The notes beneath the pieces are model-generated. The model made no database searches, had not been told where the DNA came from, and worked only from the letters and a program-made list of their open reading frames with translations. Both the position numbers and the translations under genes were made by a program. A DNA stretch of 59,467 bases, counting the filler, from Jimgerdemannia flammicorona (lineage: Eukaryota), in NCBI GenBank assembly GCA_003990765.1. It is 2 parts of 2 records of this genome, joined end to end, with 100 filler letters (N's around TTAATTAATTAA, not from the genome) between each part and the next. Parts side by side here need not be neighbours in the genome. Positions count along the whole stretch, not along the records: positions 29,793 to 59,467 come from RBNJ01000477.1; 1 more part is not named here. One strand, given 5' to 3'. Shown piece by piece: positions 1 to 56,700 of the stretch. How positions within the stretch are numbered: the first letter of the stretch is position 1; each line of letters opens with the position of its first letter.

Positions 1-205
1 TGGGTTGGAGAGCAGGATCTTGGACTGGTGGCCTTATTGTACAAAGAAAAGGAAGAAGAGAGGATTGAAAGAACTGGAGGTTGATCATGCTGCTGGATGT
101 AGACAGGAAGATGGTGACTAAGATGATTGTCACAAGATTACAGAGGGTTGCTCAATAGGTATTGGGTGAGGAGCAGCAGGGCTTTGTGAGAGGTAGACTT
201 ATCAG
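1..205 (+). mobile_element. L1/Tx1-like LINE (family A) RT fragment, cut by window start and by the next LINE copy
   Basis: Translates to GLVALLYKEK..KNWRLIMLLDVDRKMVTK..EQQGFVRGRLIR, the start of an L1-type RT; same sequence as copies at 11050, 34150 and 57380. Confidence 0.85.
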
Positions 206-5952: not shown

Positions 5953-6370
5953 TCCAGTAGATCCAAAGCCTTATTCTTCTCTCTTAGTCTTGATAAGTTC
6001 AATGGCTTCAGTAATCTTAGGCTTCTTAACTTCATAAATCAGCATCTGGTCAATTCTGTCATGCTTCTTAACTTTAAATGAAGTGATGGAGTTGTAATTC
6101 CTGACTATAAGAAAGATCTCACCAGTATAATCAGGGTCAATGACTCCTTCTTTAACTGAGATTTCACTCTTGGCCAGACTGCTTCTGATCTTGATAATTC
6201 TGACATAGTTTTCTGGTAACTTGACTTCTATTCCAGTGCCAAGTAGAGTGGTGGTCTGTGGTTCAAGGATAGTATCTTGGATGCTGGCAAGGTCTATTCC
6301 TACAGCTTCTTCAGTCTTGTATTCTAGAATCTTGACTTTGGGGTAAAACTTCTTGACCTTGAGAGTAATG
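5953..6370 (-). pseudogene. dUTPase domain inside the gypsy pol, between protease and RT
   Basis: Manual translation: LKVKKFYPKVKILEYKTEEAVGIDLASIQDTILEPQTTTLLGTGIEVKLPENYVRIIKIRSSLAKSEISVKEGVIDPDYTGEIFLIVRN..DRIDQMLI..REE*GFGSTG; all five trimeric dUTPase motifs recognisable. Confidence 0.9.
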
Positions 6371-20185: not shown

Positions 20186-20226
<41 letters not shown>

Positions 20227-29562: not shown

Positions 29563-30080
29563 GGACTCAAGACCCGCGGATCTTATTGGAAGGGAACCTA
29601 GACTATATAGGCCAAAACCCTCCCCCACCACCCACCGAACAATATCCCCCCATTAACCTAGGCTACGAATTTGTCTTGTTTTTTTTTTTTTTNNNNNNNN
29701 NNNNNNNNNNNNNNNNNNNNNNNNNNNNNNNNNNNNTTAATTAATTAANNNNNNNNNNNNNNNNNNNNNNNNNNNNNNNNNNNNNNNNNNNNTTCCCCAT
29801 CCTGACCCTGTCGGCAAAGGTCGCCCTCCCCCCACCTCTCTGCCTCAGTCCACCTCTCCCTCCACCTCCAGCGCCACCGCCCACCACAGATGGCCCCGGC
29901 ATCCCCAAACCATCTCCTCATTTCCTCCCAACCTGCTGCCAGTCGAAGGCACGGCTGCCCCCCTGGCCGGCCTGCCCACCAGTTTGCTCGTTGCTCGCCA
30001 TGTTGATAGTAGCTTTTCACCAAAAACTTCGCAGAAAGTGTTGTCCAAATCTTGTGTCACCTGAATGTTACCGGTGAAAG
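29526..30080 (-). mobile_element. Young LINE ends flanking the scaffold gap (3' tail 29526-29692; 5' end and ORF1 start 29793-30080)
   Basis: Poly-T 29526-29559 plus 3'UTR-like sequence; after the gap a CpG-intact ORF1 start and the 5' signature accggtaacattcaggtgacac. Confidence 0.7.
29693..29792. other. Assembly gap with artificial six-frame stop linker
   Basis: 44 N + TTAATTAATTAA (29737-29748) + 44 N. Confidence 0.95.
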
Positions 30081-31075
30081 GTGTCTTCCCCATGTTCTCC
30101 TTTTCAGCCAGCCTCACCTGGATATTGACATCACTAGTCTGGAGCTCCATACCCTCCCAGACCTTAAACCTGACATCCATGATCTCTCCATACTTCTTGA
30201 CCACCTCCACAATCAACTCCCTAGCCCTCTCCTTTGATACTATAGGAAGATTCAACATCATCAACTGCACCACTCAGGGGTCCCAGTATATGCATCTGGC
30301 TATAGGGACCACAACCCTGCCCACTGTCACCCCCTTCTCCATGGCAGCCAGCAATGTTTCTTCTTCCTTAAACCCCATCTTGACCCCTTCTTTCCCCTTC
30401 AAAAACTTTACCAACACTGCCCCTTTCGCCTCCTGTGCCACCAGCCCCAAGATCATCCTTGCAGTCACCACCAAGCCCCTGAAACACATTGTGACCATGA
30501 ATTCTGACCTCGATTTCTTGAGTAACAGTGCTAACACCATGCCCATCACCCCATCTACCAGGTCCCTGGGCCTTGTGCCCACCCCTGTCCCAAATTAGCA
30601 ACCACCATCACATCTGGATTTTTTTTTCAGATTCCCAGTTACAACCCCATCAACAGTCACATATCCAGTCCCTACTCCCCCTCCTCCCCTACCACTGGAC
30701 ACTCCTCTGGGCACTTCTCCCTGTCTCTCAACAGCAGCTATTGATGCCTTCCCCAGGCCCAGCCAACTATCCAGACCAGAGACCATTCTCTCCATCTTGA
30801 CCTTGTCAGCAAAGGTCAACCTCTCCCCTCCTCACTGTCTCAGGCTGTCCCTCCCTCTACCACCAGAGCCTTGGCCAGCCATTGAGGCCCCTGATATCTC
30901 CAAACCATCTCCCCTCCTCTCCACTTGCTGCCAGCCAAAGGTACTACCTCCCTCCTGGCCAGTATGCTCACCAGTTCAATTGTTGCTGTCCATATCAATA
31001 GTCATCTATTACCAAAAATGTTATAGAAAGTGTTATCTGAGTCTTGTGTCACCTGAATGTTACCAGTAAAAGATC
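30081..31075 (-). mobile_element. LINE copy F, 5' end and ORF1 N-terminal half
   Basis: LLKKSRSEFMVTMCFRGL..KFLKG..WDP..YGEIMDVRFKVWEG, homologous to ORF1 of copies A and D; 5' signature at ~31043-31075. Confidence 0.85.
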
Positions 31076-34000
31076 GTGCTGGCACTTATTGCTAAGCAAG
31101 TGGCTGGAGCAGTATTGGTAAAGTTTCTGAAGGGATTGGAGGGAGTGAAGGTGGGCTTTAAGGAGGCTGAGCCTTTAGAGGAGGTGCTGAAGGTTAGTTT
31201 GACTGTAGGGGAGGTGAGTGTCCCAATGGTGCACTGTCTGAGATAGGATCTCAGGGTAGTACAACTGCTGGTGAAAGGAGTACCCACAGTGATAGTGGTG
31301 GAGATGAGAAGAAGAGTTGAGGAGGTCATGGCAGAGTATGGTGAGGTGGTGGACATCAGCTTTAGGGTCTGGGAAGGGACCTCACTCAGGAATAGAGACA
31401 TTGATGTGTGGATTTGGTTGGCTGAGAAGGAAGCTACCAGGAAGGCAAGGGACTGACCTTCAGTAATAGTCTAGGAGGCAATCTTGTGCAAGGTAATGAG
31501 GGTGAAGAGGAGTGAGGAGGAGGAAGAGGATTTGTTGGAAGCATTGGAAGAGCTGAGTGGGGCAGTGGAGTAGTGGGCAAAGGCTTGGAAGGCTTTTGTG
31601 GAATTGATACACTTGGAGGTAGTGGATGGGAAGCAGATTAGAGTGGATAAGGGGCAGTGAAAAAGAGCTCAGGGATGTAAGTATCAGAAGAAGCTGTTGG
31701 CAAAGCTAGAAGATAGACCTTGGAAGGATGTGGGTGGAATGGTGGAGGCTGGGGGTGCCAAAGTGAGTGTCTGGGTCAATGAGAATGGTGGGAGTATAAG
31801 AAAGGTGGCAGAGAAGGACAGGAAAGTGACTGACAATGATCTATATGCTGATGGTATGTTTGAGGTCTGAGAAGAGGGCTGAGAGAGATTGCCTACCCCT
31901 ATTCCTCTTATTAGGCAAGGTCCAACTTTCTAAAGTAAGGTGGTAGAGGATGTGCTGATGAGAGGGGCCCAGCAAGTGCAGTTTGGAGTTCCTGAGGTAG
32001 TGAAGGGGAGACAAGTGGTAGCAGTTAGAGAGGAGGAACTGGTGGATGTCCTGGAGGTGTGGGATGAGTCTGTGAGTGCCAGAGCTGACACCATGATGTT
32101 AGATGGAGGGAGACCAGTGACTCCTAGGGAGAAGGAGGTAGGGAACCTGCTTTGGATGTACCAGATGATGAATAACCTGGCAGCTGAAGAGTTGGGAGAG
32201 GTAGACTTGAGAGTAATGAGCAATAAGCATTGGGTGCAGATCCTACAAGGGGATGGTGTGGAGTTAGCATTGAAGGTGGAGATCCTTGCAGTATATCTAG
32301 AGGAGAAAGAGTATGAGGTGGATAAGGAGTGGGAGGCAGAGCTGGCAGGGGTTACTGGTGAGAGGGCTAAATACTGCTGAGACAAGCATCATAGATTGCA
32401 GCTCTGATAGAAGACCTGCCTGGAGTACCAAGAGGAGTTTGAGGAGAAGGCAGATGGGGAGATGAATGAGCTATTGGCTGGACTAGAGGCTCAGAGGGCT
32501 GAAGAGGAGGAGATGACTGCAGAACATAATCTGGACTTGGTGCAGAAAGAGATAAACATGGAGCAGTAGAGATAGACTGGATAATATACTATATTTCATT
32601 ATAAATAGTACAACTAATATTTTCTTTTTAAATGTGAATGGGTTATGGGATGCTTCTCAACATAGGAACATTTTTACTTGGCTGAAGGAATTGGAGGCTG
32701 ATCTTTTCCTCTTGCAGGATGTCAGGTGTGAGAATGATTTGAATAGGCTAGAATAGATGAAGGAATGGAGAGATATGGCAGTTTGGAAGGGCAAGGTTGG
32801 GATTCTGGTCTGAAAGGGCCAAGGGGAGATATAGGATATAAGGAGCTGGGGGGATAGATTGGTCTGAGGAGAGTGGAAATGTATAGGTTGAGAGCCAGTT
32901 ACCATGAGCTCCTACTACTGTCCTGCTATACAGAGTGAGCATATGGATTGGGTGAAGGGTCTCCAGAAGAGTGAGGTCCTTATAGAGGCTGGGGTAGATG
33001 TGCTTGGTGGAGACTTCAATATGGTCTTAGATGTACTGGTAGATAGAACAGATGGTAGAAGGGGAGCTGAGAGTAGGAGTGGAGGGTTAGTGGTATGGAA
33101 GGATGTGGAAAGGCTAAGTGCTCTGATAGATACTGGTAAGGAGTACTAGGGAGATCAGAAGGTATACATATATTGGGTGGGGGGTCTGGGGATGAGGATC
33201 GACTAGATATTGACAGCTAACTACTGGAGATTAGATGTTTGGAAGTCACTGGAAGTGGAATAGTGCCCTTGGTCAGATCATTGGGGGCTGTTAGGGCAGA
33301 GATGTTTTGGGGGGAGTGGGGATGGGCCTGGACATTGGTGCCTCAATTCCTTGTTATTAGATGATAGGATCTAGTAGAATGTATAGGTAGAAGACATTCA
33401 ACTGAGGGTGGAGAGCTGGAGGCAGGAAGGTGCTCCAGTTGGTGTTCAGTGGATGAGGATGAAAGCAATGGCCAGGGTTTACTGGAGTGAGGCTGGCAGA
33501 GAGGCTGGGAAGCAGAGGAGGTGATAGGTGAGATGGACTTCAATTAGACTGATCAGACTCTTAGAGGATTGGGCAGGGCTAGCAATGGAGGTAGAGGAGA
33601 GAGAGGATTGGAGATTGATAAGAGTAAAAATGGAGGTTGGAGAATTACAACAGATGCTGAGAGTTGAGGAGGAGATAACAGTGTAGGGCTTAGCAGCACA
33701 GCTTTGTTGGCAGGGGTTGGAGAAAGGAGAGAGGCCCTCTAAATATCTCATGAGAGTCCTTCAGGTGAGAAGGGTACAGCAAAGGTGGGAGGGAGTAGTT
33801 GACTCTGATGGGATATAGGTGCATGGTATACAAGACATTCTTGGTTCACTAAAGAAGTGATGGAGTGGATTGTGGAGTGAGAAGGAGGGTGGAGCAGATG
33901 CTGCTGCCATTGACCAGACATTGGAGAATTGGTACTCTCCTCAAGCAGATAGGCTGGGTGACTTAATGTTGCCAGTACAAGAAGAAGAGATCCACCAGGT

Positions 34001-36320
34001 TCTTGCTACAACAATCCTGAGCATGATACCTGGGGAGGATGGTCTGCTCTGGGACTTCTGGAAGAAGATGGTGGAAGTTCTGGGAGTTCTGGATGAGATG
34101 ACAGTATTGTGTGACTTTATATTACAGACAGGGAGATGGGTGGGGGAACAGGATCTGGGGCTGGTAATACTGCTTTACAAGAACAAAGGAAGGTGAGAGG
34201 ACTGGAAGAACTGGTGGCCAATTATGCTACTGGATATGGACAGAAAGTTAGTAACTAAGGTGGTGGTTGCAAGGCTACAGAAGGTGGCCTAGTAAGTCCT
34301 GGGTATTGAGCAGAGGAGTTTTGTAGGTGGCTGGCTTATTAGGGATGGTACAGCTTGGGTGCATGGAGTTATTGAAGGGGTATGAGTCTGTGGACTAGAT
34401 GGGTGATTGGTCTTCTTGGACCAAGAGAAGGCTTATGATCAGGTATAGTGAGTCTGGCTGGTAAAAGTATTAGATTGGATTGGAGTACTACAACAGTTCC
34501 AGTCAGCAATAATCAGCTTACTGGAAAGGAGTAGGGCTGCACTCATATATAATAGACATAGAGGGGTATCATTTCCCTTAGGTAGAGGAGTGCCCCAGGG
34601 GGACCCACTGTCCCCCATTCTATATGCTCTTTCTCTAGAGCCTCTAATGGACAGAATCAGGTAGAAGATAGTAGAGCTTTCTATTTTTGGAATTGGGTGG
34701 AAAGTTGGAGCCTTTGCAGATAATATAGTGGTCAGCCTAGAATCTATTGCAGATATTGAGGAGCTTAAGAAGATAGTGGAGTGGTATGAGGAGAACTCTG
34801 GAGCTAAACTCAATTGACACAAGTATAAAACAATGATGTTGGGCAATGACCTAGTGGGAGGAGATGTTATCAGAACAATTGTCTCTACTGGAAAAGTAGT
34901 ACAGTACTTGGGTATCTATTTGTCAGTATATGGATTGGTACTATCTAGACTCTGGTGAGAGCAGAGGGTTAGAATCTGGAGAGAGACCCTGTAGAGCTGG
35001 GGGGGTTGCCATTTATCTCTAGTGGGGCATGTCTCAATTTTGAATGTCTATTGGCTGCCAAAGTTGTAGTATCTGGCTTATTATCTGGACTTCTCAGCCT
35101 GAGTAGTGAAACAATTGTTGAAGCTGGCCAAGGGGTAGATCTGGGCTAGAAGAAGGAGTCAGATCAGTTGGGAGGTCTTATCCTTACTAGTGGCAAGAGA
35201 AGGACTTGGGCTGGTTGACTTTCCAAAGCAGCTACACTGCTTGAGAGCATAGTGGTTGAAGAGAGCAGTGGAATTGAGAGGGAGCAGCTAAGTTCCCCTA
35301 TTACAGAAGGTCTGAGAGATGAGAGCCTCACCAAGAGACTCAATGGGTGATCTCCTCTCATTGGTTGGGCTTCAGAAAACTACACAATTGCAATATAAAG
35401 GCTTCTGGTAGAGAATAGCCAAGGGGGTACACCATATTGAAATTTGTTGGCAGAGTAATGAAGGAGAGATAGCTTGGGACCCAGTGATGTGGAGATGGAA
35501 CTGAGTATTGCTGGAAGGCATTCCCTTAGTCAAGTTTGACATTAGTAATGGGATAGACTGTCAAAGGGGACAGGGCCAGGATCTGTAGCCTAGCAGATAG
35601 TAGAGAGTTAGTATCAGAGAAAAATGGGACTGATATAGTATATGGGCCTAGAGTGCTGAGGTGAGGAGATGGATACTGCCAAAGTACTGAGCAGTCTGAT
35701 GGCACATACTGAGAAGGAATATAATGCTTAACTTTCACTTCTGACATCTTATCAAGGGGAGTTACTTTGACTATAAGGAGTGTCACAATGTAGGGTAGGA
35801 GGGAGAATATATATAGATATCTGAACATTGGCTAGGAGAGTGTGAGGTACTTAATAACTTCTGGTGGACTGTTAGGGACTGCTTGGGGGTAGTGTATCAA
35901 AGAGACAGCACACAGGGTCAGTGGGAGGATTTGAGAGATAGACTAGTGGGGGGAGTGGGAAAGAAGTGGCTTACCTTAGGCTAGATTTTGGTGATTTGGG
36001 TGGGGCTGGCCAGTCATTGGCTATTTGTTTTTGAAGATGAGAGGAGACTTAGCTTGGGGGACTGATTGTTGTGTTGGCATGGCCTTATGGAAGACACCTT
36101 GACAGGCTGGTGGCTTAGTTGGGGGCTGCAGGATGATCAAAGGCATCACTTAGTAGAGAGAGTCTATAGGTAGAGTAGGGGGAGGGTGGGAGTAGTGGAT
36201 GAGAAGGTGGCCTTTATTTGTAATAATATGGAGAGAGGCTCCTCTATGGGAATTGGGTAAGGAGAGAAGATACTGTATACTTATTAATAGATTGGTAATA
36301 AATGGCAGAGTCTAAGTAAC

Positions 36321-36372
<52 letters not shown>
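31076..36372 (+). mobile_element. LINE copy G (partial ORF1 + decayed ORF2 + poly-A)
   Basis: ORF1 to ~32570; APE (LNVNGL, GGDFN, SDH); RT (PGEDGL, LDQEKAYD, GVPQGDPLSP, AFADN); poly-A 36324-36372; 3' end nearly identical to copy D. Confidence 0.92.
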
Positions 36373-36374
<2 letters not shown>

Positions 36375-36658
36375 GACTCAAAAATGGAGAAGACTACCAC
36401 TCTTAGTAATAGTATTTATTGATAAATATCTATAATATAATATCTTCTTATTTAATATATATATCTTCAGAATCAGAAAAGTGAGCAAAGAGACACTCTG
36501 CTGAATTAAAAGCTAAACCTTTAAGAGTAATCCCAAGTTCTTCAATATCTGATTTTAAAGAAAAAGGTAAAAGAATTCTCTATAGATGAAATACCATAAG
36601 AATAGAGAGAACTCAACTCAAAGGATCAAGATACTAAAGGAGTAGTAAGCCTTATGAC

Positions 36659-37261
36659 TAGTGCTCCGAACGAGTCAATCCAGATGGGATTCAGATGGAT
36701 TCGAATCCCATCCAGATCAACTCGGATTGGATTCGAATCCCATCCAGATGGATTCAAATCAACCATTGTTTTGATTTCCAAATTGGACAATTAAATGTTT
36801 ACATCAATAACTCAATGAATAATCATCTAAATTTGATGATCTTAGTGTCATTTGAAAGCCCTTAATAAGGCCTTTCTAATGATATCAAGAACATTAAAAT
36901 TGGATTACGCGTTGCCGAGATATTAAGGAAAACGTTCTATTTGACGAAATTTCCAAAATCAGCAAATCGAAGAATTTCCAAAATCGGCGATTCAGACGGG
37001 TTCCTTCATAACTCAGCAACGCATGATCGGATTTTAATGTTCTTGGTATCATTAGATAGGCCTTATTAAGGGCTTTCAAATGACACCAAGATCATCAATA
37101 TTGGATGATTATTCATTGAGTTATTGATGTAAACATTTAATTATCTAATTTGGAAATCAAAACAATGGTTGATTCGAATCCCATCCAAGTTGATTCAGAT
37201 GGGATTCAATCTGAATCAATCCGAATCCAATCCGGATTAAATTGACTCGTTAGGAGCACTA
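36659..37261. mobile_element. Non-autonomous hAT-type DNA transposon (MITE), 603 bp, almost fully palindromic
   Basis: TIRs TAGTGCTCCgAACGAGTCAAT / ATTGACTCGTTaGGAGCACTA; 8-bp TSD CTTATGAC (36651-36658, 37262-37269); subterminal GGATTCGAATCC-like repeats; internal arms ~36760-36930 and ~37005-37180. Confidence 0.9.
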
Positions 37262-37909
37262 CTTATGACTCTGCACTATTCTGAGTTTGTAAATTGGATT
37301 CTAGTCTGACCAATGAGCAAGTTCTCAAGAATATATCAGAAATGAGAACAGGGGGAACAGTTATTGTTTTCAACCAAGATGAGTGGGATCCCCAGGATAG
37401 CAGCATGGGGGTGGACATGAGTTAAGGGTGATTGAGAAGAGTGGAGGCTTGATGGAGAGTGGACATAGTAGGTGGCAGCAGAAAAGCTTTTAGGTCTATG
37501 CAAGTTTCAAAGTTAGTTTTTAAAAGAAATAGATTAAAGTAATAATACTATAATTGAGTTTTGTTTTTTACAAAGAGTGGGAGAGAATATATTGGCCTTC
37601 ACAGGCAGATTACCCAAATCAAAAATATCTATCATGTATATCACAATTCTGTTCTATATCTTGTGATTGTATTTTTGTTGCTGATTATCAATGACTAGAC
37701 ATTAACAGATATGTCACTTTTTCTAGTTCTGGACAGTTATTCTCAAGTCAGTGATCTTGGAATTGGAGTAATGACCCTAATCTGATATCTGCTGATGCTA
37801 TGTAGATAAAAATAAAAAAAAGCCATTGTGCTGCTTCACGTAATTATATTATAGTAAAAATAAGCAACTTCTGAGATATTGTGACATCCTTCCACAATTG
37901 TGAATTATA

Positions 37910-40900
37910 TTATACAACAAGTAGAGAATAGAGGAATTGTTTAGAGCAATATATGATACTATTATGGTGGATATGAAGATTGGTAGTAAAAGGTCAAGCA
38001 GTAGAAAACAATAAGCTTATGTGAATTTTCATGATGGAACAAAGAAGCAGAATAAAGTATTTTCTAAATCAAGATACAATAGATCTGCAATCTGCCCTTG
38101 GCACTACAGTATATAGTAGTCTTTATTCAAAATTGAGAATAAAGTTCAGATAAATAAAGACATGGATCTAACTCTAGAATTTCAGAATCAGAATAGTGCA
38201 TAAGTACTCAAGCCTTGCTCTGATCCAAACAATAGTCCGGATCAGGCTTCATTGATCTATACACATGATGGGCTATTAAAAACCTGATATAGAAATGATT
38301 AAGAAAAGATACCAGTCATGTAATCTAATGTTATACATATATAAAACAAATGCTAAAAATGGAACTAAACTAATGACTATCACATGTCATCACATAATTG
38401 TCACTTATAGATTTAAAAACCTAAAAATCATTGACACCCGAAGGTGCAGATATCAGACCTAGAGCCTCATGACTGGAGCAGAGTAGAGTCTTGGTACTGG
38501 AGTAAGTGAAGTGAGCAAAGGTAGACAGGTATCACAGAGCATAAGTATGCAGGCATCAGGCCTAAAGCCTCATGCTGAAGGTTGTCCAGTGATTTTTCAC
38601 ATTTTTAAACATCATATGGCATGTACAGGCAGTGTGGCCTTTAAGGAGAACTTAGAGCAAAACTGGTATTTGAGATGGCATTAAGAATGGTAAAACCATT
38701 CTTCTGGGTGATGATTAGTCATTGGGCAGTCACAGAGAAACCAAAACAGAGCAAAGTGGTACATAGAGTCTTGTTGGGCTATTGATGTAGCCATCAGGCC
38801 ATATTGTATTGGATGACAAGTAATGGGAGAGAAAAAGCAGAGTGGGGGATGGGGGGGTGGGAAATAAGAGGAGAGGTGAGAAGTAAAGTTCGGACCTCAA
38901 GCCAATCAATCAAACTCAATTGAGCAGTTATAATATCAATAGAGTATCCTTTCCTGTGAACCAGGAATTCAGCCAAAGACTGATACTCATCAAGCCAATC
39001 ATGGCAAGATAAGTAGAGTAACGAAAGGCAGTGGGCCTCATTTACAATGTATAGATGAAGCATCTTCCTAGGATGATTGCTCAACTAGTCAACAAACTGA
39101 GTACTATATGAGAATTTGGCAAAACAGCCTGTGCAGAATGGTGTGACTCAGATTTCTAGGTCCAAATAATGGCATGGTCCAGTGGACAAGACTTCCCATT
39201 TGATATGATGATATGAAGAGTACACAGTACTAAAAATTGAGACCAAGTCCATAATCGCAGGTATAAAGATAATAAGATCATCAATATACTGATAGAACTT
39301 TAGCCCAGCAGCAACAGCTTGGCTGAGCAGATGATTGGATGCTTGCAAGGCATGCAATTCATGAGCAAATCCAATAAGATTGATAAGATCCAGAGCACAG
39401 TTAGTGTCCATAGCTATACCAGTTACAAAGTGGAAGGAACTGATGGCAGATGTAAACGTCGTATGAGTCATGACTATGTAGACAAGGCTGAGAATGGCTT
39501 CAAGTAGCAAAGAGCCAGAGGGGAAGACCACTATTGACAAAAAAGTGAGGCAGTTAATGTACTCATCTAATGTGATCCTGGTATAGAAGGTAGCAAAATC
39601 CCCAGTAGCAATATAGTTGCAATCTGACACATCTAGGTAATCTGATTGAACCAATTGTAACAGTTCTAACATATTATATAGAGATGAGTAACATGAGTAA
39701 CCCACATTATAGTACAGATGGGCTGACCACAGGTGGAGAAAGTGAGATAGGAAATGCGAAATCTCAGTTATGAGAGAGTTAAAAGCATCAACGATAGAGT
39801 ACCATGCCATACATGCCCCTTTGTGTACCTTGAGCAGAACATGAAACATAGATAGCTTACAATCATTAGACTCTATAAGATATTCTCAAATTAGTATACA
39901 ACTTCAGTTGCTAATGCAGAACTCAAGTAGACCAAGCAGGTCTAGCCTTACTGATTCCTTAATATTATCAATTATAGAGAAATCATTCACATATGCAGGA
40001 TCATGAAGGAGGGACCAAAGACTGTCTAGATATAGAGTGTGCAAAATTATAGTAAACCCCAAATTTTTGTTGGTAAGATAGACTGTAAAGTCAGCATAAG
40101 TGTGGATATCTTTGAGAAGGTGACAGAACTTCTTCAGTACAAGCATGCTGGATACATTCATTATGGGTCAGACAGCTTGATTTAAAGTAGTACTCATATG
40201 GAGCATAATTTGCATATTTTCCATACAATGCAGCAGTTGCCATTTAGATAGCATCTAGGTGGAGATCTCCAGGGTGTTGTCAGGATTACCCATAGAGGTC
40301 TGGAAGGTGGTAAGGTTGAGATGTCATTGGAATGATGACAACAAAATCAGGTCAATGGTACTATTCATTGATGGTGATCCAGAGAGAACAAACTTAGGGC
40401 CAAAGTTCAGCATATATGTGAGCTCAGGGATAAGCCAAGGCAGAGGTATATCAGTAACAAAGCTCTTCATAGTAAACATCTGAAACCGAGTGATGAAAAA
40501 CTGACTTAAGCGAGAACCAGGAAGAGAAGACACAAAGACAAAATCCTCAATTAGTGTCAAGGTCACTATCATATGTAGAATGGGGACATCAGGGCCAAAC
40601 CATGCTGCTGGGAAGTCATATAAAACTTCCAGGCTGGGGACCTCTAGTTTTTTGATGCTAAAGGACAGACATCGCTGGCATTATACTAGATGACATGATG
40701 TTTGGTGGCAGTACACTTGTTGCACTGCAGTACAAATGCTCTGGCAACACTCTTAGATAAGCAGCTTGAAGTCAACAAGCAGCTGGTCCCAGTAGAAGTA
40801 GAAGAAATAGACAGGGAAGGTGAAGTCTTATGCACTTGCTTGATCTCTTTTACAGAACCCACTGTTTCGACAGGGGCTAGGGGGCAAGGCATCTAGAACA

Positions 40901-42481
40901 GCTATGGCAGTTTGGCACAGCAGAGGCTGAAGTCACACTCACCACCTTTGCCTTTTCCACAGCCCCTACAGGTGCAGCAGTAGAGAGTAGAGGGATGGGG
41001 ATACTCTTTTTCAGTCAGGCGGAACTGGTAGCAGCAGAAGCAAACATATGTTTAATATCTGGAGTAATAATCTCAGGATGATTCCCAAGCTCCTCAACTA
41101 TGGCTTTGTGGGTGGCAGCAGAAATTCCATCTTGCAGGAAGGAGGACACAGAGACAGTCAGGCAGACAGTAGTGGTGGCAGCTTTAGCAGCGGTAGCAGT
41201 GGCAAGACAGTGAGATTGATGCATAATAACATCAAAACCTCAGAGGAGGAACAAGGTAGTTCTTGCTCATTTAGAGGTGGAAATAGTGTAAACATTCTTA
41301 TACAGTCCCTGAGTGGTATCTTTAGGAATCCCAAAGAATGTGAGAGATTCAGATGACACACTCATGGCTTTGTCAATTTTAGCATACTGGTCCTTAGTGT
41401 ACTGGACAGCAGTGATGTTTGTAGTCATGGCAGCCTCAACTGCGGCCATGATATGGTACTTGGCTTCTGCCAAAGCAGTTTCAAGGGTGGCACCACACTG
41501 CTCCTCAGGAAGGAGAGTGATCAAAGCAGCTACTTTCTTGGAAGGAGTAAACTTCCAATTGGCAACTTGGGCCTGTAGAAAGTCAGCATAGTATTCCTTC
41601 ATAGCAATAACTTCAAGGGTGGAAAGTACTCCAGTACAAGCAGCACAGAAGAGAACGGGGATCTTGGCAGATGTGGTGGCAATATAAGTAGCCAGGTTAT
41701 CAAACTCTGCCAAATTGGCAAAGACAGCAGAGGGGACAGCAGCATTGCCATCTACATTCATATTGTCTATCATATTGTGTATTATAAAATGAGTAGAGAA
41801 TAGAGGAATTGTTTAGAGTGAGATATAATACTGTTACAGTGGATATGAAAATTGGTGGTAAAAGATCAAGCAGTAGAAAATAATAAGCTTATATAAATTT
41901 TCATGATAGAACAAAGAAGTAGAATAAAGTGTTTTCTGAAGCAAGGTGCAATAGATCTACAACCTGCTCTTGGTACTACAGTATGTGGTGGTCTTTATTC
42001 AAAATTGAGAACAAAGTTCAGGTAAACAAAGACATAGATCTAACCCTGGAATTCCAGAATCAGAATGGTATATAAGTATCCAAGCCTTGCCCCGATCCAA
42101 ACAATAGTCTGAATCAGGCTTCATCGATCTACATACATAATGGGCCATTAAAAACCCAATATAGAAATGATCAGGAAAAGGTACCAGTCATATGATCTAA
42201 TGTTATACATATATAAAACAAATGCTAAAAATGAAACTAAACCAATAACTGTCATGTATCATCATGTGATTGTCACTATAGATTTAAACTCCTAAAAATT
42301 GTCAGTACCTAAAGGTGCAGGCATTAGGCCTAGAGCCTTATGATTGGAGCAGAGTAGAGCCTCGGCACTAGAGCAAGCAAAGTGAGCAAAGGTAGACAGG
42401 TATCACAGAGTGTAGATATACAGACATCAGGCCTAGAGCCTTATACCAGAGGTTGTCTGGCAATTTTTCACATTTTTAAAC
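37910..42481 (-). mobile_element. Penelope-like retroelement without GIY-YIG endonuclease, left arm (pLTR + ORF1 + RT)
   Basis: ORF1 from ATG 41773; RT frame to stop at 38641 with LNFGPKF, NKNLG, TGDFATFYTRI, GIAMDTNCALDL, YIDD (39277-39288), YLDLEI, SNHP..KGY; 41784-42481 directly repeats 37912-38610. Confidence 0.88.
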
Positions 42482-45400
42482 CTATAAGTGACAATCACAT
42501 GACAACATGTGATAGTCATTGGTCTAGTTCTATTTTTAGCATTTGTTTTATATATATGTAATATTAGATCATATGACCAGTACCTTTTCCCAATTATTTC
42601 TATATTAGGTTTTTAATAGCTCATCATATGTGTAGATCAATGAAGCCCAATTCAGACTATTGTTTGGACTAGAGCAAGGCTCAGGTACTTATGCACCATT
42701 CTGATTTCAGAATTCCAGGGTTAGATCTGTATCTTTGTTTATCTGAACTTTGTTCTTAATTTTGAATAAAGACTGCTATGCACTGTAGTGCCAAGGGCAG
42801 GTTGCAGATCTATTGCACCTTGCTTTGGAAAACACTTTATTCAACTTCTTTGTTCCATTGTGAAAATTTACATAAGCTTATCATTTTCTACTACTTGATC
42901 TTTTATCACCAATCTTCATATCCACTATAATAGTATCACATCTCACTCTAAACAATTCCTCTATTCTTTACTCATTTTATAATACACAACATGACAGACA
43001 ATATGAATGTAGATGGCGATACTGCTGTCCCTCCTACTGCCTTCACCAATTTGGCAGAGTTTGACAACCTGGCTGTCTATATTGCCACCATGTCTACTGA
43101 GGTCCCCATTCTCTTCTGTGCTGCTTGTACTAGAGTACTTTCCACCCTTGAAGTTATTGCTGCAAAGGAACACTGTGCTGACTTTCTGCAGACCCAAGTT
43201 GCCGATTAGAAGTTTACTCCTTCTAAGAAAGTAGCTGCTTCGATTGCCCTCCTTCCTGAGGAGCAGCATGGTGCTGCCCTTGAAACTGCTTTAGCAGAAG
43301 CCAAGTACCATGCCATGGCCACAGTCAAGGCTGCCATGACTACAAATGTTACCACTGCTTAGCACACTAAGGACCAGAATGCTAAAATCGACAAAGCCAT
43401 GAGTATACATATCATCTGAATCTCTCACATTCTTTAGAATTCCTGAAGATGCCACTCAGGGACTATGTAAGAATGTTTACACTGTTTCCACCTCCAAATG
43501 AGCAAGAACTACCTTGTTCCTCCTCTGAGGTTTTGACATTATCATGCATCAATCTTGCCATCTTGCTGCTGCTGCCACTGCTAAAGCCACCACTGCTGCT
43601 GTCTGCCCGACTATCCTCACATCCTCCTCTCTACAAGATGGGATTTCTGCCACTGCCCACAAAGCCATGGTTGAGGAGCTTGGGAATTACCCTGAGATCA
43701 TTACTCCAAGTGTTAAACATATATTTGCTTCTGCTGCTGCCAGTTCTGCCTGACCAAAAAAGAGTGTCCCCACCCCCCTACCCTCTACCACTATGCCTGC
43801 AGGGGCTGTGAGAAAGGTGAAGGTGGTGAGTACAACTTTGGCCTCTGCCATGCCAAACTGCCATAGCTGTTCTGGATGCCTTGGTGTGCCTATGAAGGCC
43901 CACCGAGGTCCTTGCCCCCTAGCCCCTGCTGAGACAGTGGGTTCTGTAAAAGAGATCAAGCAAGCACATAAGGCTTCATCTTCCCCATCCATTTCTTCTG
44001 CTTCTACTGAGACCAGCTGCTCATCAACTTTGAGCTGCTCATCTAAGAGTGCTACCAGAGCATTTGTGCTGTAGTGCAATAAGTGTACTGCTACCAAACA
44101 TCATATCATCTGGCATAATGCTGGCAATGTCTGTCCTCTAGTATCAAAAAACTAGAGGTCCCCAGCCCAGAAGTCTTATATGACTTCCTGGCAGTATGGT
44201 TTGGCCCTGATGTCTCCATTCTATATAGAGTAGTGGTCTTGACACCAATTGAGGATTTTGCCTTCATGTCTTCTCTTCCTAGTTCTCACTTAAGTTAGTT
44301 TTTCATTCCTTGGTTTCAGATATTTATTGAGGAGGGCTTTGTTATTGATATACCTCCACCTTGGCTTACTCCCAAGCTCACATATATGCTGAACTTTGGC
44401 CCTAAGTTTGTTCTCCCTAGATTGGTATCAATGAATAGTACCATTGACCTGATTTCATTGTCATCATTCCAACAGCATCTTGACCTTGCTATCTTCTGGA
44501 CCTCTATAGATAATCCTGACGACATCCCAGAGATCTCTGCCTAGATACTATCTAAATGACAACCACTGCATTATATGGAAAATATGCAAATTATGCTCCA
44601 TATGAGTGCTGCTTTAAATCAAGCTGTCTGACCCATGACAAATGTGTCTGGCATACTTATACCAAAGAAGTTCTGTCACCTTCTCAAAGATGTCTGCACT
44701 CATGCTGACTTTACAGTCTGTCTTATTAATAAAAATCTGAGGTTTGCCATAATTCTGCGCACTCTGTATCTAGATAGTCTTCAGTCCCTCCTTCACAATT
44801 CTGTATACGTAAATGATTTCTCTATGATTGATAACATTAAGGAATCAGTGAGGCTAGACCTGCTTGGTCTACTTAAGTTCTACATTAGTGACTGAAGTTA
44901 TATGCCAATTTGAGAATACCTCATAGAGCTTAATGATTGTAAACTACTCATGTTTCATACTCTGCTCAAGGTATATAAAGGGGCATGTATAGTATGGCAC
45001 CCTATCATTGGTGCTTTTAACTCTCCCATGACTAATATTTTGTATTTCCTATCTTACTTTCTCCACCTATAGTCAGCCCATCTGTACCATAATGTGGGTT
45101 ACTCATGTTACTCACCTCTACATAATATGTTAGAACTGTTACAATTGATTCAATCAGATTATCTAGATGTGTCAGATTGCAACTATATCACTACTGGGGA
45201 TTTTGCTATCTTCTATACTAGGATTACATTAGATGAGTATATTGACTGCCTCACTTTTTTGTCGATGGTAGTCTTTCTCTCTGGCTCTTTGTCACTTGAA
45301 GCCATTCTTGGCCTTGTCTGCATAGTCATGACTCATATGACATTTACATCTGCTATCAGTTCCTTCCACTCCATAACTAGTATAGCTATGGGCACTAACT

Positions 45401-46886
45401 GTACTCCAGATCTTGCCAATCTTGTTGGCTTTACTCATAAATTGCATACCTTGCAAGCACCCAATCATCTGCTCAGCTGAGCTGTTGCTACTGAGCTAAA
45501 GTTCTGCTGGTATATTGATGATCTTATTGTCTTTATACCTGTGATTATGGACTTGGCCTTGATTTTTGGTGCCATGTACTCTTTGCATCATTGTATCGAA
45601 TAGAAAGTCTTGTCTGCCAGACCATGCCATTATTTGGACCTGGAAATCTGAGTTATACTGTTCTGCACAGGCCATTTTGCCAAATTCCCACATAGTACTC
45701 AGTTTGTTGACTGGTTGAGCAATCATCCTAGGAAGATGCTTTGTCTATATATTATGATGAGGCCTGCTGTCTTTTGCTACTCTGCTCATCTTGCCATGAT
45801 TGGCTTGATGAGTGTTGGTCTTTGGCTGAGTTCCTGGTTCACAGAAAAGGATACTCTATTGATGTTGTAATTACTCAATTGAGTTTGGTTGATTGGCTTG
45901 AGGTCTGAACTTTACTTCTCATCCCTTCTCTTGTTTCCCACCCCCCTATCCCCCACTCTGCTTTTCCTCCCCCATTACTTATTGTCCAATATGACATAGC
46001 CTGATGGCTACATCAACAGCCTGACAAGACTCTATGTACCACTTTGCTCCATTTTGGTTTTTCTGTGACTGCCTGACAACCAATCATCACCCAGAAGAAT
46101 GGTTTTATTATTCTCAAATACTAGTTTTGCTCTAAGTCCTCCTTGAAGGCTGCACTGCCTGTATGTGCCGTACAATGTTTAAAAACATGAAAAATCACTG
46201 AACAATCTCCAGCGCAAGGCTCTAGGCCTGATGCCTGCATACCTATACTCTATGATATCTGTCTACCTCCACTCGCTTCACTTGCTTCAGTGCTGAGACT
46301 CTACTTTGCTCCAGTTGTAAGGCTCTAGGCCTGATGCCTGTGCCTTTAGGTGTTAATGATTTTTAGGTTTTTAAACCTATAAGTGACAATCATGTGACAA
46401 TACATGACAGTCATTGGTCTAGTTCTGTTTTTAGCATTTGTTTTATATATGTATAATATTAGATCATGTGACCGGTATCTTTTCCTGATCATTTCTATAT
46501 CAGGTTTTTAATGGCCTGTCATGTGTGTAGATTGATGAAGCCCAATTCAGACTATTGTTTGGATCAGAGCAAGGCTCAGATACTTATGTACTATTCCAAT
46601 TCTAAAATTCCAGGGTTAGATCTGTGTCTTTGTTTACCTGAACTTTGTTCTCAATTTTGAATAAAGACTGCCACATACTGTGGTACTGAGGGTGGGTTGC
46701 AGATCTATTGCACCTTACTTTGGAAAACACTTTATTCTGCTTCTTTATTCTATTGTGAAAATTCACATAAGCTTATCATTTTCTACTGCTTGACCTTTTA
46801 CCACTGATCTTCATATCTGCTGTAATAGTATCACATCTCACTCTAAACAATTCCTCTATTCTCTACTCGTTTTATAAAAAAAAAAA
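42473..46886 (+). mobile_element. Penelope-like retroelement without GIY-YIG endonuclease, right arm (pLTR + ORF1 + RT + short poly-A)
   Basis: pLTR 42473-42980 repeated at 46368-46875; ORF1 42991-44155; RT frame ~44146-46146 with IAMGTNCTPDLANL, YIDD (45511-45522) and thumb SNHP motif; A11 at 46876-46886. Confidence 0.88.
44146..44208 (+). promoter_or_regulatory. Candidate -1 programmed ribosomal frameshift signal (A_AAA_AAC + stop + stem-loop); mirror copy at ~40591-40653 on the minus strand
   Basis: ORF1 ends TCA AAA AAC TAG; the -1 frame continues KLEVPS.EVLYDF.. into LNFGPKF; hairpin gaagtc/gacttc at 44170-44187. Confidence 0.7.
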
Positions 46887-46906
46887 GCCAATTTTTTTCA
46901 TTCCAG

Positions 46907-47507
46907 CTCCAACCCGACTCGCTGCACCAATATTGTCCCCGCCTCCCAGCTCGACACCGACATCGCCAACAATGCTGTACCACAGTTTGTTTTCTATATG
47001 CCCAACATGAACAACAATGGTAAGTGAACACGTTATCCCCTCCTTGCCCCCTCCAATCCCCCACAATACTCACCCATCCATCCCATCGCATCCACATATA
47101 TCCAGGTCATAACACAAACATCGACACGGCCTCAGAGTGGCTCAAGAAATTCTTGGAGCCGAAACTAAAGCAGCCTGCTTTCTTTGACAACACTCTTATC
47201 CTCGTCACGTTCGACGAACAGGAGGACTACATTTCACTACATAATCACATATTTGCCATGCTCATTGGCGGAGCCATGAAAAGAACGATTAGGGAGGATT
47301 CGACGGTGTATAACCATTACAGTGTGTTGGCAATGGTTGAGAGGAATTTGGTACGTGTGGTTTTTCAACGGTTTTGAGCAGGTGATAGTGGATCGATTTA
47401 TAGTGCTTCAATTAACGACGATTTTCTAATAATTCTACACACAGAGCCTGGGTAACCTCGGCGAGAAAGATGTCGATGCCACTCCCTTCGCCACAACGAA
47501 TAATTGA
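46907..47507 (+). pseudogene. 3' half of a phosphoesterase-family (fungal acid phosphatase-like) gene
   Basis: Exons 46907-47019, 47106-47350 and 47445-47507 with GT-AG introns give SNPTRCTNIVPASQLDTDIANNAVPQFVFYMPNMNNNGHNT..WLKKFLEP..NTLILVTFDE..YNHYSVL..LGNLGEKD; 5' exons not found. Confidence 0.8.
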
Positions 47508-49171
47508 GTTGTGAAATTGATTTCCAAATACGAGTATTTAATGGGGAGGGAACCTGATTATTTCTGAACGAATGAACATTTTGAGTTTAGAAAAATTTAT
47601 ACAAGACTAAATAAAATAAACGGAAAACATACAGAAGAGTCCGAAATTTAGATTTCAGAAATCACTAACATGACGACTAAAAACAAAAAACGAAGTGAGA
47701 CAATAATGAGAAGGATAGCGCGAAATCTTTGATTGGACATTCTCTGAAAACAACACCCATGTTCCCGCCATCCAGTTAGGTAGGTTTTTTTTTTTTTTTA
47801 GCACATTGTCAATTGTTGTTTTGAGTGTATTGTGCGTTTTGAGCACATTGTCATTTTGGATTCACAGCATGAAATCCATAGCCACCTGAATAAAAGGCTT
47901 ACTGAATAATGCCATCTGTGCATGTTGCTCATACCCTATTTATTTTAAAGATAATGGCGTTACCGGCGGATTTCGGACATTAGGGGATGAGACGTTTTTT
48001 TCACTCGTATATACTCAAAGTAGAAAAATTTAGAACTTCAAATTTCAGTGACGTCATCTTTTCGAAATTATCCTAATTGCGAAATCGACGGACAGCTAAC
48101 TGTCGCAGTTGCAGAAACATAGGAAACGGAGGAAGTCACTAACAAACCACGACCTCCATATAATATCCTAGATCAGCAAAGGAAAGATATGAGCCAACAT
48201 TTGACGTTCGTCTATTTCGAACATCACAAGCTAACGTCTCGCCATGTGAGATTGCTAAATCCATCACATCTGTAAGGCGACACCTGATGACGGCTTGATA
48301 ACCGTGGAAAGTTGGTAAAATGGCTTATAAATACAGTCAAAAAACAAAAATAAATTCTATCCTACCGCGGGCGCCCCGTTTCTTGGGTGTCTTCTCCCAT
48401 GCGGGTTGCGAATGGTGATTCTGCGGAAAAAATTGCATTCATTTGATTATCGACCTGGTTAACAATCGTCGATTTTTGAGAACCGTATATACCTGCCAAA
48501 GGCCCATCGCCCCGTCGCTTGGTTGTGGGACTCGCACACATGAATCACACCGCCCCCGTTTTCTCTTTTCTTCTCTCACTCCCTCCCCCTTACTCTACCA
48601 TTTTCATAGACACTTCTCTAGATTCTTAGAGCCTCTACACATTCATAGAGAGGTTTTTTTTTGTTCTCTACTGGATGGATTCGGTGAGGAGCAACAGACG
48701 GGGATAATTATGAATGGGTTGAAACTTCGTGGCGTGGTTGTTATTTCCATTTTGTGGAGAATTCCGATATATAGTCAACCAATGGTTTTAGATACAGCCT
48801 TGCTCAAGTCACGTTTCCTACCACGACGTGTAATTTATTTGACCAAACTTCATTCGTCTCCTTCAAAAGGTTTTGTCGGCGTTGTTCTTTTCCCACGATG
48901 TAATAAAAAATGTATCTCGAATGGGCCTGTTAGATCCTTGGTCCTGATCAGGACGAGTTGGAAACAAAGCGTTTTTGCACTATCCAACCTGAGGGTGGGG
49001 GCGATAACTATGGGGAAGGGCTATGACGTGAGTGTGTGAGGCAGTGTAGCTACGTCATTCCCCTTGTTAACAAAACCTCGCTTACAAGAACCAACGAAGC
49101 TTCTCACTTCCCTTTAAAAAACACATCATACATTACCAATCGAATACACTCACTGCGCAAACAAACAGTTC

Positions 49172-53729: not shown

Positions 53730-56700
53730 GATCTTTTCTCCAGTAATATTTAGGTTATACAACCTTTTGACAATACTCAAAATACAGTTTTTGGAGAGAA
53801 GATACTAGTAACATGGTGAGCAATGAGCATTCTGAGGTGTGTACTGGGCAGGGGGGCTCAAGTATATTTGACTGGCAACATATTGAGAGAGGCTCTGATT
53901 TGGGGGAAAGCATGAGAGACTTACTGATAGGAGGATGTAAAAAGAGAGAGAGTAGTGTTGGAGGATAAGAGTTCAGGAGAGTGAGCTTCATGAATAAGGT
54001 GAAAGGAAGTCAGCTAGCAACTGGCCTAGAGGGATGGCTGAGGAGATGGCAAAGAATGCAGAGCAGTAGATACAGAGGAGAGTCTTTCTAGGGGATCAGA
54101 GTAGTGGGGCTGGCAGTGTAGCAGCTGAGGAAGTAACTGCTGATGAGAGTATAATGGGCAATCTAGAAAAAAATCTAGATAGAACTGCTGATAGTGAACT
54201 GAGTTATGGGAAGGGCATAATGTCCAGTGATCTGGCTGATAGTATAACAGGCCTGGTAGTGGCCACTCAAGAAGTCAATCTTGGAGTTCATAGTTATCTT
54301 ATATTTCTGGGGCTTAGCAGTGATAGCAAAAATAATCCTAGGGCTGATTATAAAGCAGATGGGTGATATAGTATCTGTTAAGTTCCTGAGGAGTCTGGAA
54401 GAGATGGAGGTGGGCTTTGAAAAGGCTAGGCTATTGGAGGATATACTGAAGACTGAATTGATGTTTGGGAAGGTATGTGTCCCAATAGTGTACTGCTTAA
54501 GATAGAATCCCAGGGTGGTACAGCTTCTGGTAAAAGAGATTCCTATAGTAATTACTATAGAGATGAGGAGAAGAGTTAAGGAAGTCATGGCTGAGTAAGA
54601 GAGGTGATCAATATAGGGTTCAGAGTCTGGAAAGGGACCTCCTTCTGGACAGAGGATATTGATGTCCAGATTTGGTTGATAGGAAGAGAGACTACTAGAA
54701 AGACTCATGATTGGTCTTCAGTAATAGTGTGGAGAGTCTTTATGTACAAGATGACAAGAGTGAAGAGGAGTAAGGAGGAGGAGAAGGACCTGTTAGAGGT
54801 GCTAGAGGAGCTGAGTAGTACTATGGAGTAGAGGGTAAAGACTTGGAAGATATATATAGAGTTGATGCACTTGGAGATTATTGATGGAAAGTACATCCAC
54901 ATTGATAAGGGGCTGTGGGAGAAATTCCAAAAATGTAAGAGGTAGAGGAAGTTACTGATAAAACTAGAGGGAGAGGTGAATGACTACTAATAGTAGTGAG
55001 GATACTGAAGGAGCCAAAGTAAGTGTCTGAACTAGCAGAAGTAGAGAATATAGAGGTGGATCCAGAGGAGGCCAGGAAGGCACTGAGTAAGGACCTGTAT
55101 GAGAATGGTATATTTGAAGTCTGGGAGGATACTCCTTCTCTTCTTATTAGGTAGAGACCAGTTGTAAGAGACCAGGTGGTAGAGGATGTACTAATGTATA
55201 GTACTCAGCAAGTGTACTTTAGAGTTTCTGAGGTAGCAAAGAGGAGATAAGTAGTGGTGGTTGATAAGAATGAACTGGTAGATGTTTCAGAGGAGAAGTG
55301 GGATAAGGCTGTAAGTGCAGGGGCTGATACCTCAATACTGGATAAAGGAAGACCAGCAACTTCAGAGAGAAAGGAGATGGAGAACCTAATGGATGTGTCA
55401 GATGATGAATAACTTTATGGCTGAAGAGTTGGGAGAAGTGGATTTGAGAGTGATGAGTAATGAGTATTGAATACAGATTCTGTATAGTGATAGAGTGGTA
55501 GAGGTACTAAAGGCAGAGGTACTTGTAGTTTTCCTAAAGAAAGAAGAGTATGAGATTGATAAGGAGAGGGAGACTGAGCTGGCAGTTACTGCTGGTGAGC
55601 AGGCCACCTTCTGTTGGGCAGAGCATCATAGATTACAGCTCTGGCAGGAGGTCTGTCTGGAGTATTGTGAGAATTTTGAGGAAAAGGAGGATGGGGAACT
55701 AACTGAGCTTCTGGTTAGATTAGAGATAAGGAGAGTTGAAGAAGAAGTAGTAGATGGGGAATACAACTTAGACTTGGCACAGGAAAGAATATATGTGAAG
55801 TTGTAGAGAGTGGACATAACTCTTAATATTATTTCTTATAAATAGTATAACAAATATGTTTTCTTTGAATATGAATGGACTGTAGAGTTCAGTTAGGCAT
55901 AAAAACATTTTTACTTAGTTGAAGAGCTTGGAGGTGGATCTCTTTCTTCTATAGAATATTAGATATGAAGATGATATAGATAGACTGAAATAGATGATGA
56001 AATGGGAAGATGTGGTAGTTTGGAAGAATAAGGTTGGGATCTTGGTACAGAGAGGCAGAGGGGAGATATGAGATATAAGAAGCTGGGGAGACAGGCTGGT
56101 CTGGGGAGAGTGGATTTGACCAGGTTGGGAGCCAGTTATAGTAGAGTTCTACTACTGTCCTACTATATCCAGTGAGCAAGTAGATTGGGTGAAGAGACTC
56201 CAGGAGAGTGGGGCCCTTATAGAGACAGGAGTGGATATTCTTGGAGGGAACTTTAATATGGTCTAGGATGTGCAGGTAGATAGGACTGATAGAGAGAGGG
56301 GAGCTGAGGGTAGGAGCAGGGGTCTGGGATTGTAGGAGAAAGTAGAGTGACTGAGCTCTCTGGTGGATACTAGTAGAGAGTTCTGGAGTGATAAAAGGGT
56401 CTACATATATTGGACAAATGGTCTGGGGACAAGGATTGACTGGATGTTGACAGCAGATCACTGGGGTTTGAATGTTTGAAAATCACTAAAGACTGAGTGG
56501 TGTCTATGGTCAGATTACTAGGAGCTATTAGGGTAGGATCACTTCAAGAAGAGTGGGAATAGGTCTGGATATTGGTGTCTCAATTTCTCTTTGTTGACTG
56601 AGAAGGAGTTGTGGGACAAGTGGGTGGAGAATATTTGGCAGAGAATGGAGGGTTGGATATAGGAGGGTACCCCAGTGAGTATCTGATGGGTAAGGTTGAA

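Follow-up and report, generated by a model that had tools for sequence, protein, structure and literature searches.

Penelope-like retroelements (PLEs) encode a reverse transcriptase (RT) that groups with telomerase RT in phylogenies. Their insertions end on one side in a tail of 30-40 bp and have a target-site duplication, and a hammerhead ribozyme motif in the pseudo-long terminal repeat (pseudo-LTR) is a PLE trait that is absent from Naiads. Coprina elements are found at chromosome ends and have telomeric repeats at the element 3' end. PLE integration, and the origin of PLE tandem and inverted structures, are still unsettled. Here we analyse a palindromic insertion of a candidate endonuclease-less PLE in a 59,467-nt stretch of DNA from Jimgerdemannia flammicorona (GCA_003990765.1; positions 29,793 to 59,467 are from RBNJ01000477.1), which we call the window.

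According to passages of PMC8557442, pseudo-LTRs, adjacent inverted copies and complex tandem or inverted insertions are standard for endonuclease-bearing PLEs, and the usual inverted copy keeps its 3' end, lacks its 5' part and has the 3' end pointing outward. Parts of PMC3846280 describe 18-bp and 38-bp palindromes and a 15-bp overlap at pseudo-LTR 5' ends or inverted junctions, and state (in 2013) that fungal endonuclease-less PLEs lack this organisation. The protein hallmarks given in sections of PMC8557442 and PMC13159263 are GxKF/Y, DKG or DKN (DKN being named for Coprina), RT1-7 and the thumb. A PLE protein was reported, in the portion of PMC11167929 concerned, to cleave and extend both target strands in vitro.

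Repeat finding, together with the right arm used as a query against the window, showed that 37910-46886 is a palindrome of about 9 kb, in which two arms lie head to head. The arms are collinear across 4,415 alignment columns and merely 85.6% identical, and an assembly artefact (duplication by a chimeric read) was rejected on this ground. With the whole right arm as query, no further copies of the family were found in the window. The element unit is about 3.9 kb long and consists of a single open reading frame (ORF) of about 1,000 codons with the RT, followed by a 700-nt 3' untranslated region (UTR) made of a 200-nt segment S (46177-46376) and a 501-nt segment A (46377-46877) terminating in TTTTATAA. 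The left arm (minus strand, 42481 to 37910) has the order S-A-ORF-S-A, and the right arm (plus strand, starting at 42482) the order A-ORF-S-A. The element 3' ends point outward in both. Each arm is a partial tandem, a pseudo-LTR and then a full unit, with 8 nt between A and the next ATG, and on the plus strand the whole locus reads rc(A)-rc(S)-rc(ORF)-rc(A)-rc(S)-A-ORF-S-A (rc, reverse complement). We read 37910-46886 as one composite insertion of an endonuclease-less PLE.

The switch from left to right arm falls on an inverted repeat that bounds S. A first-pass annotation of this DNA had noticed that 46177-46197 is complementary to 46357-46376, and we found this pairing to be a perfect 10-bp and a perfect 8-bp stem with a 3x2-nt internal loop between them. 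The 5' end of this copy of S reads GTTTAAAAAC-ATG-AAAAATCA and its 3' end TGATTTTT-AG-GTTTTTAAAC. One copy of S, reverse-complemented and running on from the left arm, makes up the palindrome centre (42282-42481); its complementarity to 46177-46381 is 79%, and as a direct repeat it matches 38406-38610 at 81%. The right arm starts from 42482 (CTATAAGTGAC), which in the intact unit is the position right after S. The annotation had placed the switch inside TTTTTAAAC (42473-42481), which was borne out both by position and by the loop triplet at the junction: this triplet is CAC, of the S-start type and not of the S-end type (AG), so the switch lies within the terminal 10 nt. It had also described the centre as the segment enclosed by the repeat, which is correct, and as about 190 nt long, where we measured 200 nt. 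Over its full length S makes a long imperfect hairpin, which leaves a core of only about 75 nt that is truly non-palindromic. The idea behind these observations, that the junction was formed via base pairing at the element's own inverted repeat, is supported by our results.

The best-kept copy of S (46177-46376) folds as RNA with -57.5 kcal/mol (z -3.76), and 0 of 200 shuffles were as good. RNA folds of the three S copies gave z values of -3.4, -2.0 and -2.2, with the terminal stem kept in the lowest-energy fold of each. When the best-kept copy was aligned to its own reverse complement, 142 of 216 columns were identical, where the highest of 50 shuffles reached 128; for the remaining two copies the value was at or near the shuffle maximum. 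In the cDNA sense S folds with -26.1 kcal/mol (z -2.6, 2/200 shuffles as good) and its 3'-terminal 10 nt are fully paired. S starts at the ORF end. Homology to a related protein, P0001, reaches within 40 nt of S, and the last stop of the right-arm frame (TGA, 46188-46190) lies inside the 5' half of the repeat, with an earlier in-frame stop upstream too.

A bare exact 10-nt inverted repeat is unremarkable by chance: the right arm has 12 of them, and 200 shuffles gave 7.2 on average and at most 16. An ungapped census of 21-nt inverted repeats gave 0 windows with at least 18 matches, a test that is unsuited to the S repeat with its 3x2 internal loop. Chance does not explain that three things coincide: the junction lies base-exactly on the 10+8-bp repeat, this repeat closes a hairpin of z -3.8, and the arms are otherwise collinear over 4.4 kb.

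The element was identified through its RT. A 245-aa ORF at 39148-39885 (minus strand) gave a marginal match to RVT_1, and phmmer found 33 relatives of it at E <=0.001 (best 3e-24, 35% identity); one named hit among these matches is from a glomeromycete fungus. RVT_1 was present in 11 of 16 relatives scanned, while nuclease, integrase, RNase H or recombinase families were found in 0/16. The endonuclease-bearing PLE clades (Penelope/Poseidon, Neptune, Nematis, Naiad/Chlamys) have a GIY-YIG endonuclease domain at the C or N terminus; here no such domain was found in 7 ORFs of the element in the window, in 16 relatives (E <=0.01) or in 6 relatives (E <=10). Both arms retain decayed PLE motifs (GPKF, (D>N)KNLG, LKVHK, AMGT, YIDD, SNHP...RKGYS); the consensus of the relatives' alignment reads G.KF, DKNLG, LPKVHK..RPIV, GIAMGT, YIDD, S.HP...RGYP. 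PLE-specific N-terminal RT motifs, RT1-7 and thumb occur together, in an insertion that has the PLE form of a partial tandem with pseudo-LTRs plus an adjacent inverted copy. A word-index protein search among longer proteins gave no match, and PDB sequence searches gave no match or generic RTs only. A structure model of P0001 (predicted local distance difference test score 79.8) had Tribolium telomerase RT as its top Foldseek match (6usr_A, E 7.5e-07). This modelled similarity is consistent with a PLE and not diagnostic, with retron RTs and norovirus polymerases scoring nearly as high.

Several traits of described PLEs were looked for at the locus. There was no Rfam match to a hammerhead ribozyme at E <=1 in 36000-49000, nor at E <=0.1 in 19 of 33 related loci. 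No dimer of TTAGGG was found in the whole window with one mismatch allowed, and the element 3' termini read TTTTATAA, with or without an A-run, so that the telomeric location of Coprina is not seen here. From its sequence we read the element as an endonuclease-less PLE, with a protein that appears Coprina-like and a location that does not. Two other classes were rejected. DIRS and Ngaro elements have a tyrosine recombinase and RNase H beside the RT, and inverted or split terminal repeats; the window ORFs and 16 relatives have only RVT_1 and no recombinase. An LTR retrotransposon does not fit, since the gap between A and the ATG is too short for a primer-binding site and an integrase is lacking.

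How might two such arms have been joined at S? Our favoured route, which we hold tentatively and at a little under even probability, is that two cDNAs from two DNA ends were joined 3' to 3' at the S repeat. From the anatomy of the locus we infer priming from two ends and the following order of events. Two free DNA 3' ends (the sides of a break, or two broken ends) would each prime reverse transcription at the 3' end of the element RNA. The two first-strand cDNAs would then grow toward each other, which would leave the element 3' ends on the outside. The left cDNA would reach the first base of S and the right cDNA would stop at, or be trimmed to, the boundary of S and A. Like-sense cDNAs could pair only at a self-complementary stretch of the element, here the 10+8-bp terminal repeat of S. 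The annealed 3' ends, each extended on the other, would give exactly one S in the middle.

The first-pass annotation had preferred fold-back priming by a cDNA or a broken DNA end, and had named two annealing cDNAs as the alternative. Fold-back by a single cDNA is a possible, rather doubtful route. Here a cDNA from one DNA end (A, S, ORF, A, S) would snap back on the S hairpin and prime the second arm itself; the new 3' end would be joined to the other DNA end, and the hairpin would be unfolded by fill-in or replication. The strand layout, with a single S in the orientation of one arm, is exactly as this route predicts, and the paired 3' terminus of S in the cDNA sense suits it equally, as do the terminal stem common to the folds of all three S copies and the low number of transversions between the arms (13 in 4,360 bases). 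Palindromes at inverted PLE junctions have been interpreted as self-priming, an idea published for endonuclease-bearing Penelope elements (PMC3846280, in part). However, a self-primed strand ends at its own primer and gives a hairpin-capped duplex instead of a linear palindrome, so that joining to a foreign end and unfolding of a 4.4-kb hairpin are needed as extra steps. Strict copy-back also predicts mirror-image ends; the outer ends are not mirrored, which counts for two cDNAs, and the flanks are not contiguous. Finally, unfolding would give the opposite of the usual PLE inverted copy, in which the 3' end is kept and the 5' part is lost (PMC8557442, in the passages cited above).

We lean to two cDNAs because the outer ends are non-mirrored, the flanks are not continuous with each other, the inverted copy of PLEs keeps its 3' end, and the PLE protein extends both strands. 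Several points weigh against this choice. A single folded-back cDNA would yield an identical final sequence, and an intramolecular hairpin at a cDNA 3' end, which S does form in its predicted cDNA-sense fold, is kinetically easier than the annealing of two cDNAs. The two-cDNA route needs either a stall of the right cDNA at the hairpin foot or the removal of a flap of 200 nt. It also needs the left cDNA to end exactly at the first base of S, for which only an RNA start at that base would account. If the right-hand A-run is target DNA, as it could be, the argument from unequal ends falls away. No target-site duplication or empty site is definable at the locus, and the mechanism rests on one decayed locus of the family. 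Under either retrotransposition route, the first base of S would be the end of the RNA or of the cDNA.

The flanks bear on whether the palindrome arose at the RNA or the DNA level. Both arms end at the same unit terminus. Flank-to-flank similarity, direct or inverted, scored no better than shuffles, and the best inverted match had a score of 29 against a shuffle maximum of 31. Outside the arms the ends differ, with A9 after the right arm and TATAATTCAC after the left arm, where the element may run about 8-13 nt past the unit end. The ~80 nt to the left of the left arm have no match in the unit (score 28, shuffle mean 29). No target-site duplication was found between the flanks; a 12-nt match, AAAAAAAAGCCA (A8GCCA), is insignificant (E 0.58). 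The right arm adjoins the remnant of a phosphoesterase gene (PF04185), and the rest of this gene was absent from 34 ORFs of at least 35 aa in 35.5-37.9 kb and from 146 ORFs of at least 60 aa in 1-35.5 kb. A truncated gene at the right arm with no remainder on the left suits DNA ends better than a simple insertion.

An event at the DNA level after insertion could have been one of three: a resected chromosomal break that folded back at the short repeat, a broken end that was replicated and then fused, or replication that switched template at the hairpin and so made an inverted duplicate of a single resident copy. Short inverted repeats near breaks can seed palindromes. Broken-end replication and fusion has been described for L1, as have foldback junctions containing L1 insertions (bioRxiv 10.1101/2024.12.14.628481, in the part concerned). 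Such events would have duplicated the flank in inverted form; at this locus the flanks show no relation to each other, and each arm ends with the 3' terminus of the element. On these grounds the broken-DNA-end version of fold-back fails, a chromosomal fold-back palindrome is close to refuted, and we regard a DNA-level origin as hardly credible.

The decay of the copies was compared in the same light. Over 4,360 aligned bases, 616 transitions and 13 transversions separate the arms, and 484 of the 616 transitions are in a CpG-decay context. The observed/expected ratio of CpG is 0.09 and 0.11 in the arms, compared with 1.04-1.06 in the unique flank at 47-53 kb. Among the four copies of A, sites that split two against two numbered 15, 11 and 18 for the three possible partitions (chi-square 1.7, 2 df), so no pairing is favoured and the decay is star-like. 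Copying of a decayed arm would predict shared decay states in the 5' A copies, and no excess of this kind is seen, which argues against later DNA-level copying of a decayed arm. As no pair of A copies shares decay and transversions are few, all copies were undecayed and near-identical when decay began. Such a history is in line with intact RNA giving rise to the arms in a single event, or in two separated by little time. After insertion the four A copies and both bodies would have decayed independently by CpG deamination. We also observed that TpG exceeds CpA on the sense strand of the element (402 vs 308 in 37910-42281 and 390 vs 303 in 42482-46884), a bias that tracks element orientation and not the chromosome strand.

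Two unrelated insertions at different times, the second landing by chance beside the 5' end of the first, are very unlikely. The region is rich in transposable elements, and as CpG decay is saturated, the arms cannot be dated from transitions. Against chance, an endonuclease-less element depends on a free DNA end, which the 5' end of a resident copy does not provide; within a unit of 3.9 kb, chance would not be expected to put the joint inside a 10-bp repeat with the native S/A boundary restored to the base; and the arms differ by just 0.3% in transversions.

The first-pass annotation had further suggested that the fold-back could be a programmed step. S would then serve self-priming of the second cDNA strand or end processing, with head-to-head dimers as a regular by-product. 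The strong structure of S over 200 nt, its position exactly at the ORF end and the fact that the 5' end of the left arm is the first base of S are in keeping with a programme. To compare, 33 related metagenome loci were retrieved. A structured 200-nt window at the stop codon (z < -2) was found in 0/8 full-length distant relatives (25 shuffles per window, a rough test), no repeat consistently bounds the stop codon among 9 relatives, and an inverted coding copy was found in 0/4 relatives in longer genomic contigs. By the same rough test, 6 of the 8 distant relatives have a structured region 280-780 nt beyond the stop codon. Moreover, like-sense cDNAs can anneal only where the element is self-complementary, and their joint would therefore lie in a repeat even with no programme. 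We consider a programmed hairpin unlikely, and the relatives do not bear out that part of the annotation.

In a bolder version the element would use S to prime its own second strand: transcription would begin at S, and full-length cDNA would end in the hairpin and copy back to the primer. We think this improbable. If true, an endonuclease-less element could complete insertion from a single free DNA 3' end, and head-to-head dimers would be unresolved intermediates; were it true across PLEs, a self-priming S would explain the long-puzzling inverted repeats of PLEs. We know of no resolution enzyme for such hairpin intermediates here. The locus leads to three predictions: an RNA 5' end at S, a clustering of family junctions at S, and snap-back or 3'-3' annealed cDNAs from S-bearing RNA.

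Among the relatives, nineteen short contigs (within L001-L027) have exact terminal overlaps of 60-127 nt and units of 3.1-4.0 kb, and such overlaps point to circular or tandem assembly. In the 3.7-4.0-kb group the ORFs have 1008-1077 aa, with L010 longer and L020 broken; intact relatives contain one ORF of 1008-1077 aa and nothing else. One contig (L025:1-11032) holds 3.5 tandem units of 3196 bp at 99.98% identity. In four relatives (L002, L005, L016, L018) a conserved stem-loop (TTCTCGTGT...ACACGAAAA) occupies the last ~50 nt before the ORF start and ends there. Its position is similar to that of the stem-loop at which reverse transcription of a vertebrate PLE starts, as given in part of PMC11167929. 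In L027, which belongs to the 3.1-kb group with two ORFs, a telomere-like AACCCTAACCCA pairs with TGGGTAGGGGTT about 350 nt past the stop of the RT ORF.

The features of the locus are collected in Table 1. The phosphoesterase remnant has an intron-like GTAAGT after 47020. In the left flank there is an inverted repeat (36750-36935 and 36996-37181; 186-nt arms, 90% complementary, 60 nt apart), maybe a small foldback element or one resembling a miniature inverted-repeat transposable element. Another RT-bearing repeat family occupies 1-3000, 18000-26000, 30500-35500 and 54000-58500; its copy at 31065-35498 matches 25447-21037 (80%) and 54370-58722 (71%). This family shows an extreme strand asymmetry, with about 32% G and 12-16% C on one strand, and almost no CpG (1-3 per block), far more marked than in the PLE arms. 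At 5305-8341 (minus strand), ORFs for a dUTPase, an RT and a zinc knuckle point to a dUTPase-bearing element of the Gypsy type. Positions 29693-29736 and 29749-29792 are each a run of 44 N.

Table 1. Coordinates of the parts of the palindromic insertion and its right border in the window
Feature	Position	Strand	Remark
A_L3, 3' pseudo-LTR part A of left arm	37910..38410	-	outer end ...TTGTATAA, without A-run after it
S_L3, 200-nt hairpin segment opening the left-arm 3' UTR	38411..38610	-	
Decayed left-arm ORF	38611..41773	-	ATG at 41773
Left-arm motifs GPKF; NKNLG; LKVHK	40401-40390; 40071-40057; 39834-39820	-	
Left-arm motifs YIDD; SNHP; RKGYS	39288-39277; 39081-39070; ~38949	-	RKGYS is the thumb end
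A_L5, upstream pseudo-LTR part A of left arm	41782..42281	-	
S_L5, palindrome centre, single S in left-arm orientation	42282..42481	-	first base 42481 abuts first base of right arm
TTTTTAAAC, microhomology	42473..42481	+	holds the left-to-right arm switch
A_R5, upstream pseudo-LTR part A of right arm	42482..42982	+	without its own S in front
Decayed right-arm ORF	42991..46190	+	ATG at 42991; last stop TGA 46188-46190, within S
Right-arm motifs GPKF; NKNLR; AMGT	44398-44409; 44728-44742; 45385-45396	+	
Right-arm motifs YIDD; SNHP	45511-45522; 45718-45729	+	
S_R3, best-kept S copy	46177..46376	+	repeat halves 46177-46197 (5') and 46357-46376 (3')
A_R3, 3' pseudo-LTR part A of right arm	46377..46877	+	ends ...TTTTATAA
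9 extra A past unit end	46878..46886	+	oligo(A) tail remnant or target sequence
Right flank, 3' third of phosphoesterase gene	46887..47377	+	PF04185 profile positions 225-352 of 356

Compared with described systems, the locus resembles endonuclease-bearing PLEs such as Pen2a_Av and Pen3a of Adineta vaga, which in passages of PMC3846280 and PMC8557442 have pseudo-LTRs and an outward inverted copy. As reported for these two in PMC3846280 (in part), a palindrome lies at the pseudo-LTR 5' end, where the inverted junction falls. Unlike them, the element has no GIY-YIG domain, no hammerhead match and no target-site duplication that we could find; its inverted copy is full length and not a pseudo-LTR fragment, and its palindrome is a 200-nt hairpin with the loop retained. 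The RT-only protein with DKN motif, RT1-7 and thumb is like that of Coprina and Athena (sections of PMC8557442; Coprina-1_Alen, PMC13159263). The single long ORF and probable fungal host are also Coprina-like, and the 3' end joined to a truncated host gene recalls DNA-end healing, as in Coprina and Athena. In contrast to these, the window has no telomeric repeats, and the element has no hammerhead motif, lies at an internal site and forms a head-to-head dimer.

In twin priming of L1, both target strands prime and one RNA is copied once, which leaves an inverted 5' part and a microhomology joint. Our favoured reading, two end-primed cDNAs, would share with it the priming on two strands and the joining of cDNAs by microhomology. 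It differs in that both arms are complete units with their own pseudo-LTR, and each part of the element is not present just once. Self-priming by hairpins is known from classical cDNA second-strand synthesis, from the rolling hairpin of parvoviruses and from copy-back defective genomes of RNA viruses. By analogy, a 3'-terminal hairpin may have primed a same-strand copy here, which would be head to head with the loop at the axis; unlike those systems, this is a chromosomal retroelement insertion. The core idea of self-priming is already in print and the present case is one decayed locus. In the passages of the literature surveyed we found no published description of such an architecture in endonuclease-less PLEs. 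The locus preserves, to the base, the footprint of an inverted junction formed where a large hairpin of the element's own sequence paired. It shows, inside a chromosome, the inverted architecture that part of PMC3846280 states to be lacking in fungal endonuclease-less PLEs, and its hairpin is much larger than the palindromes described there.

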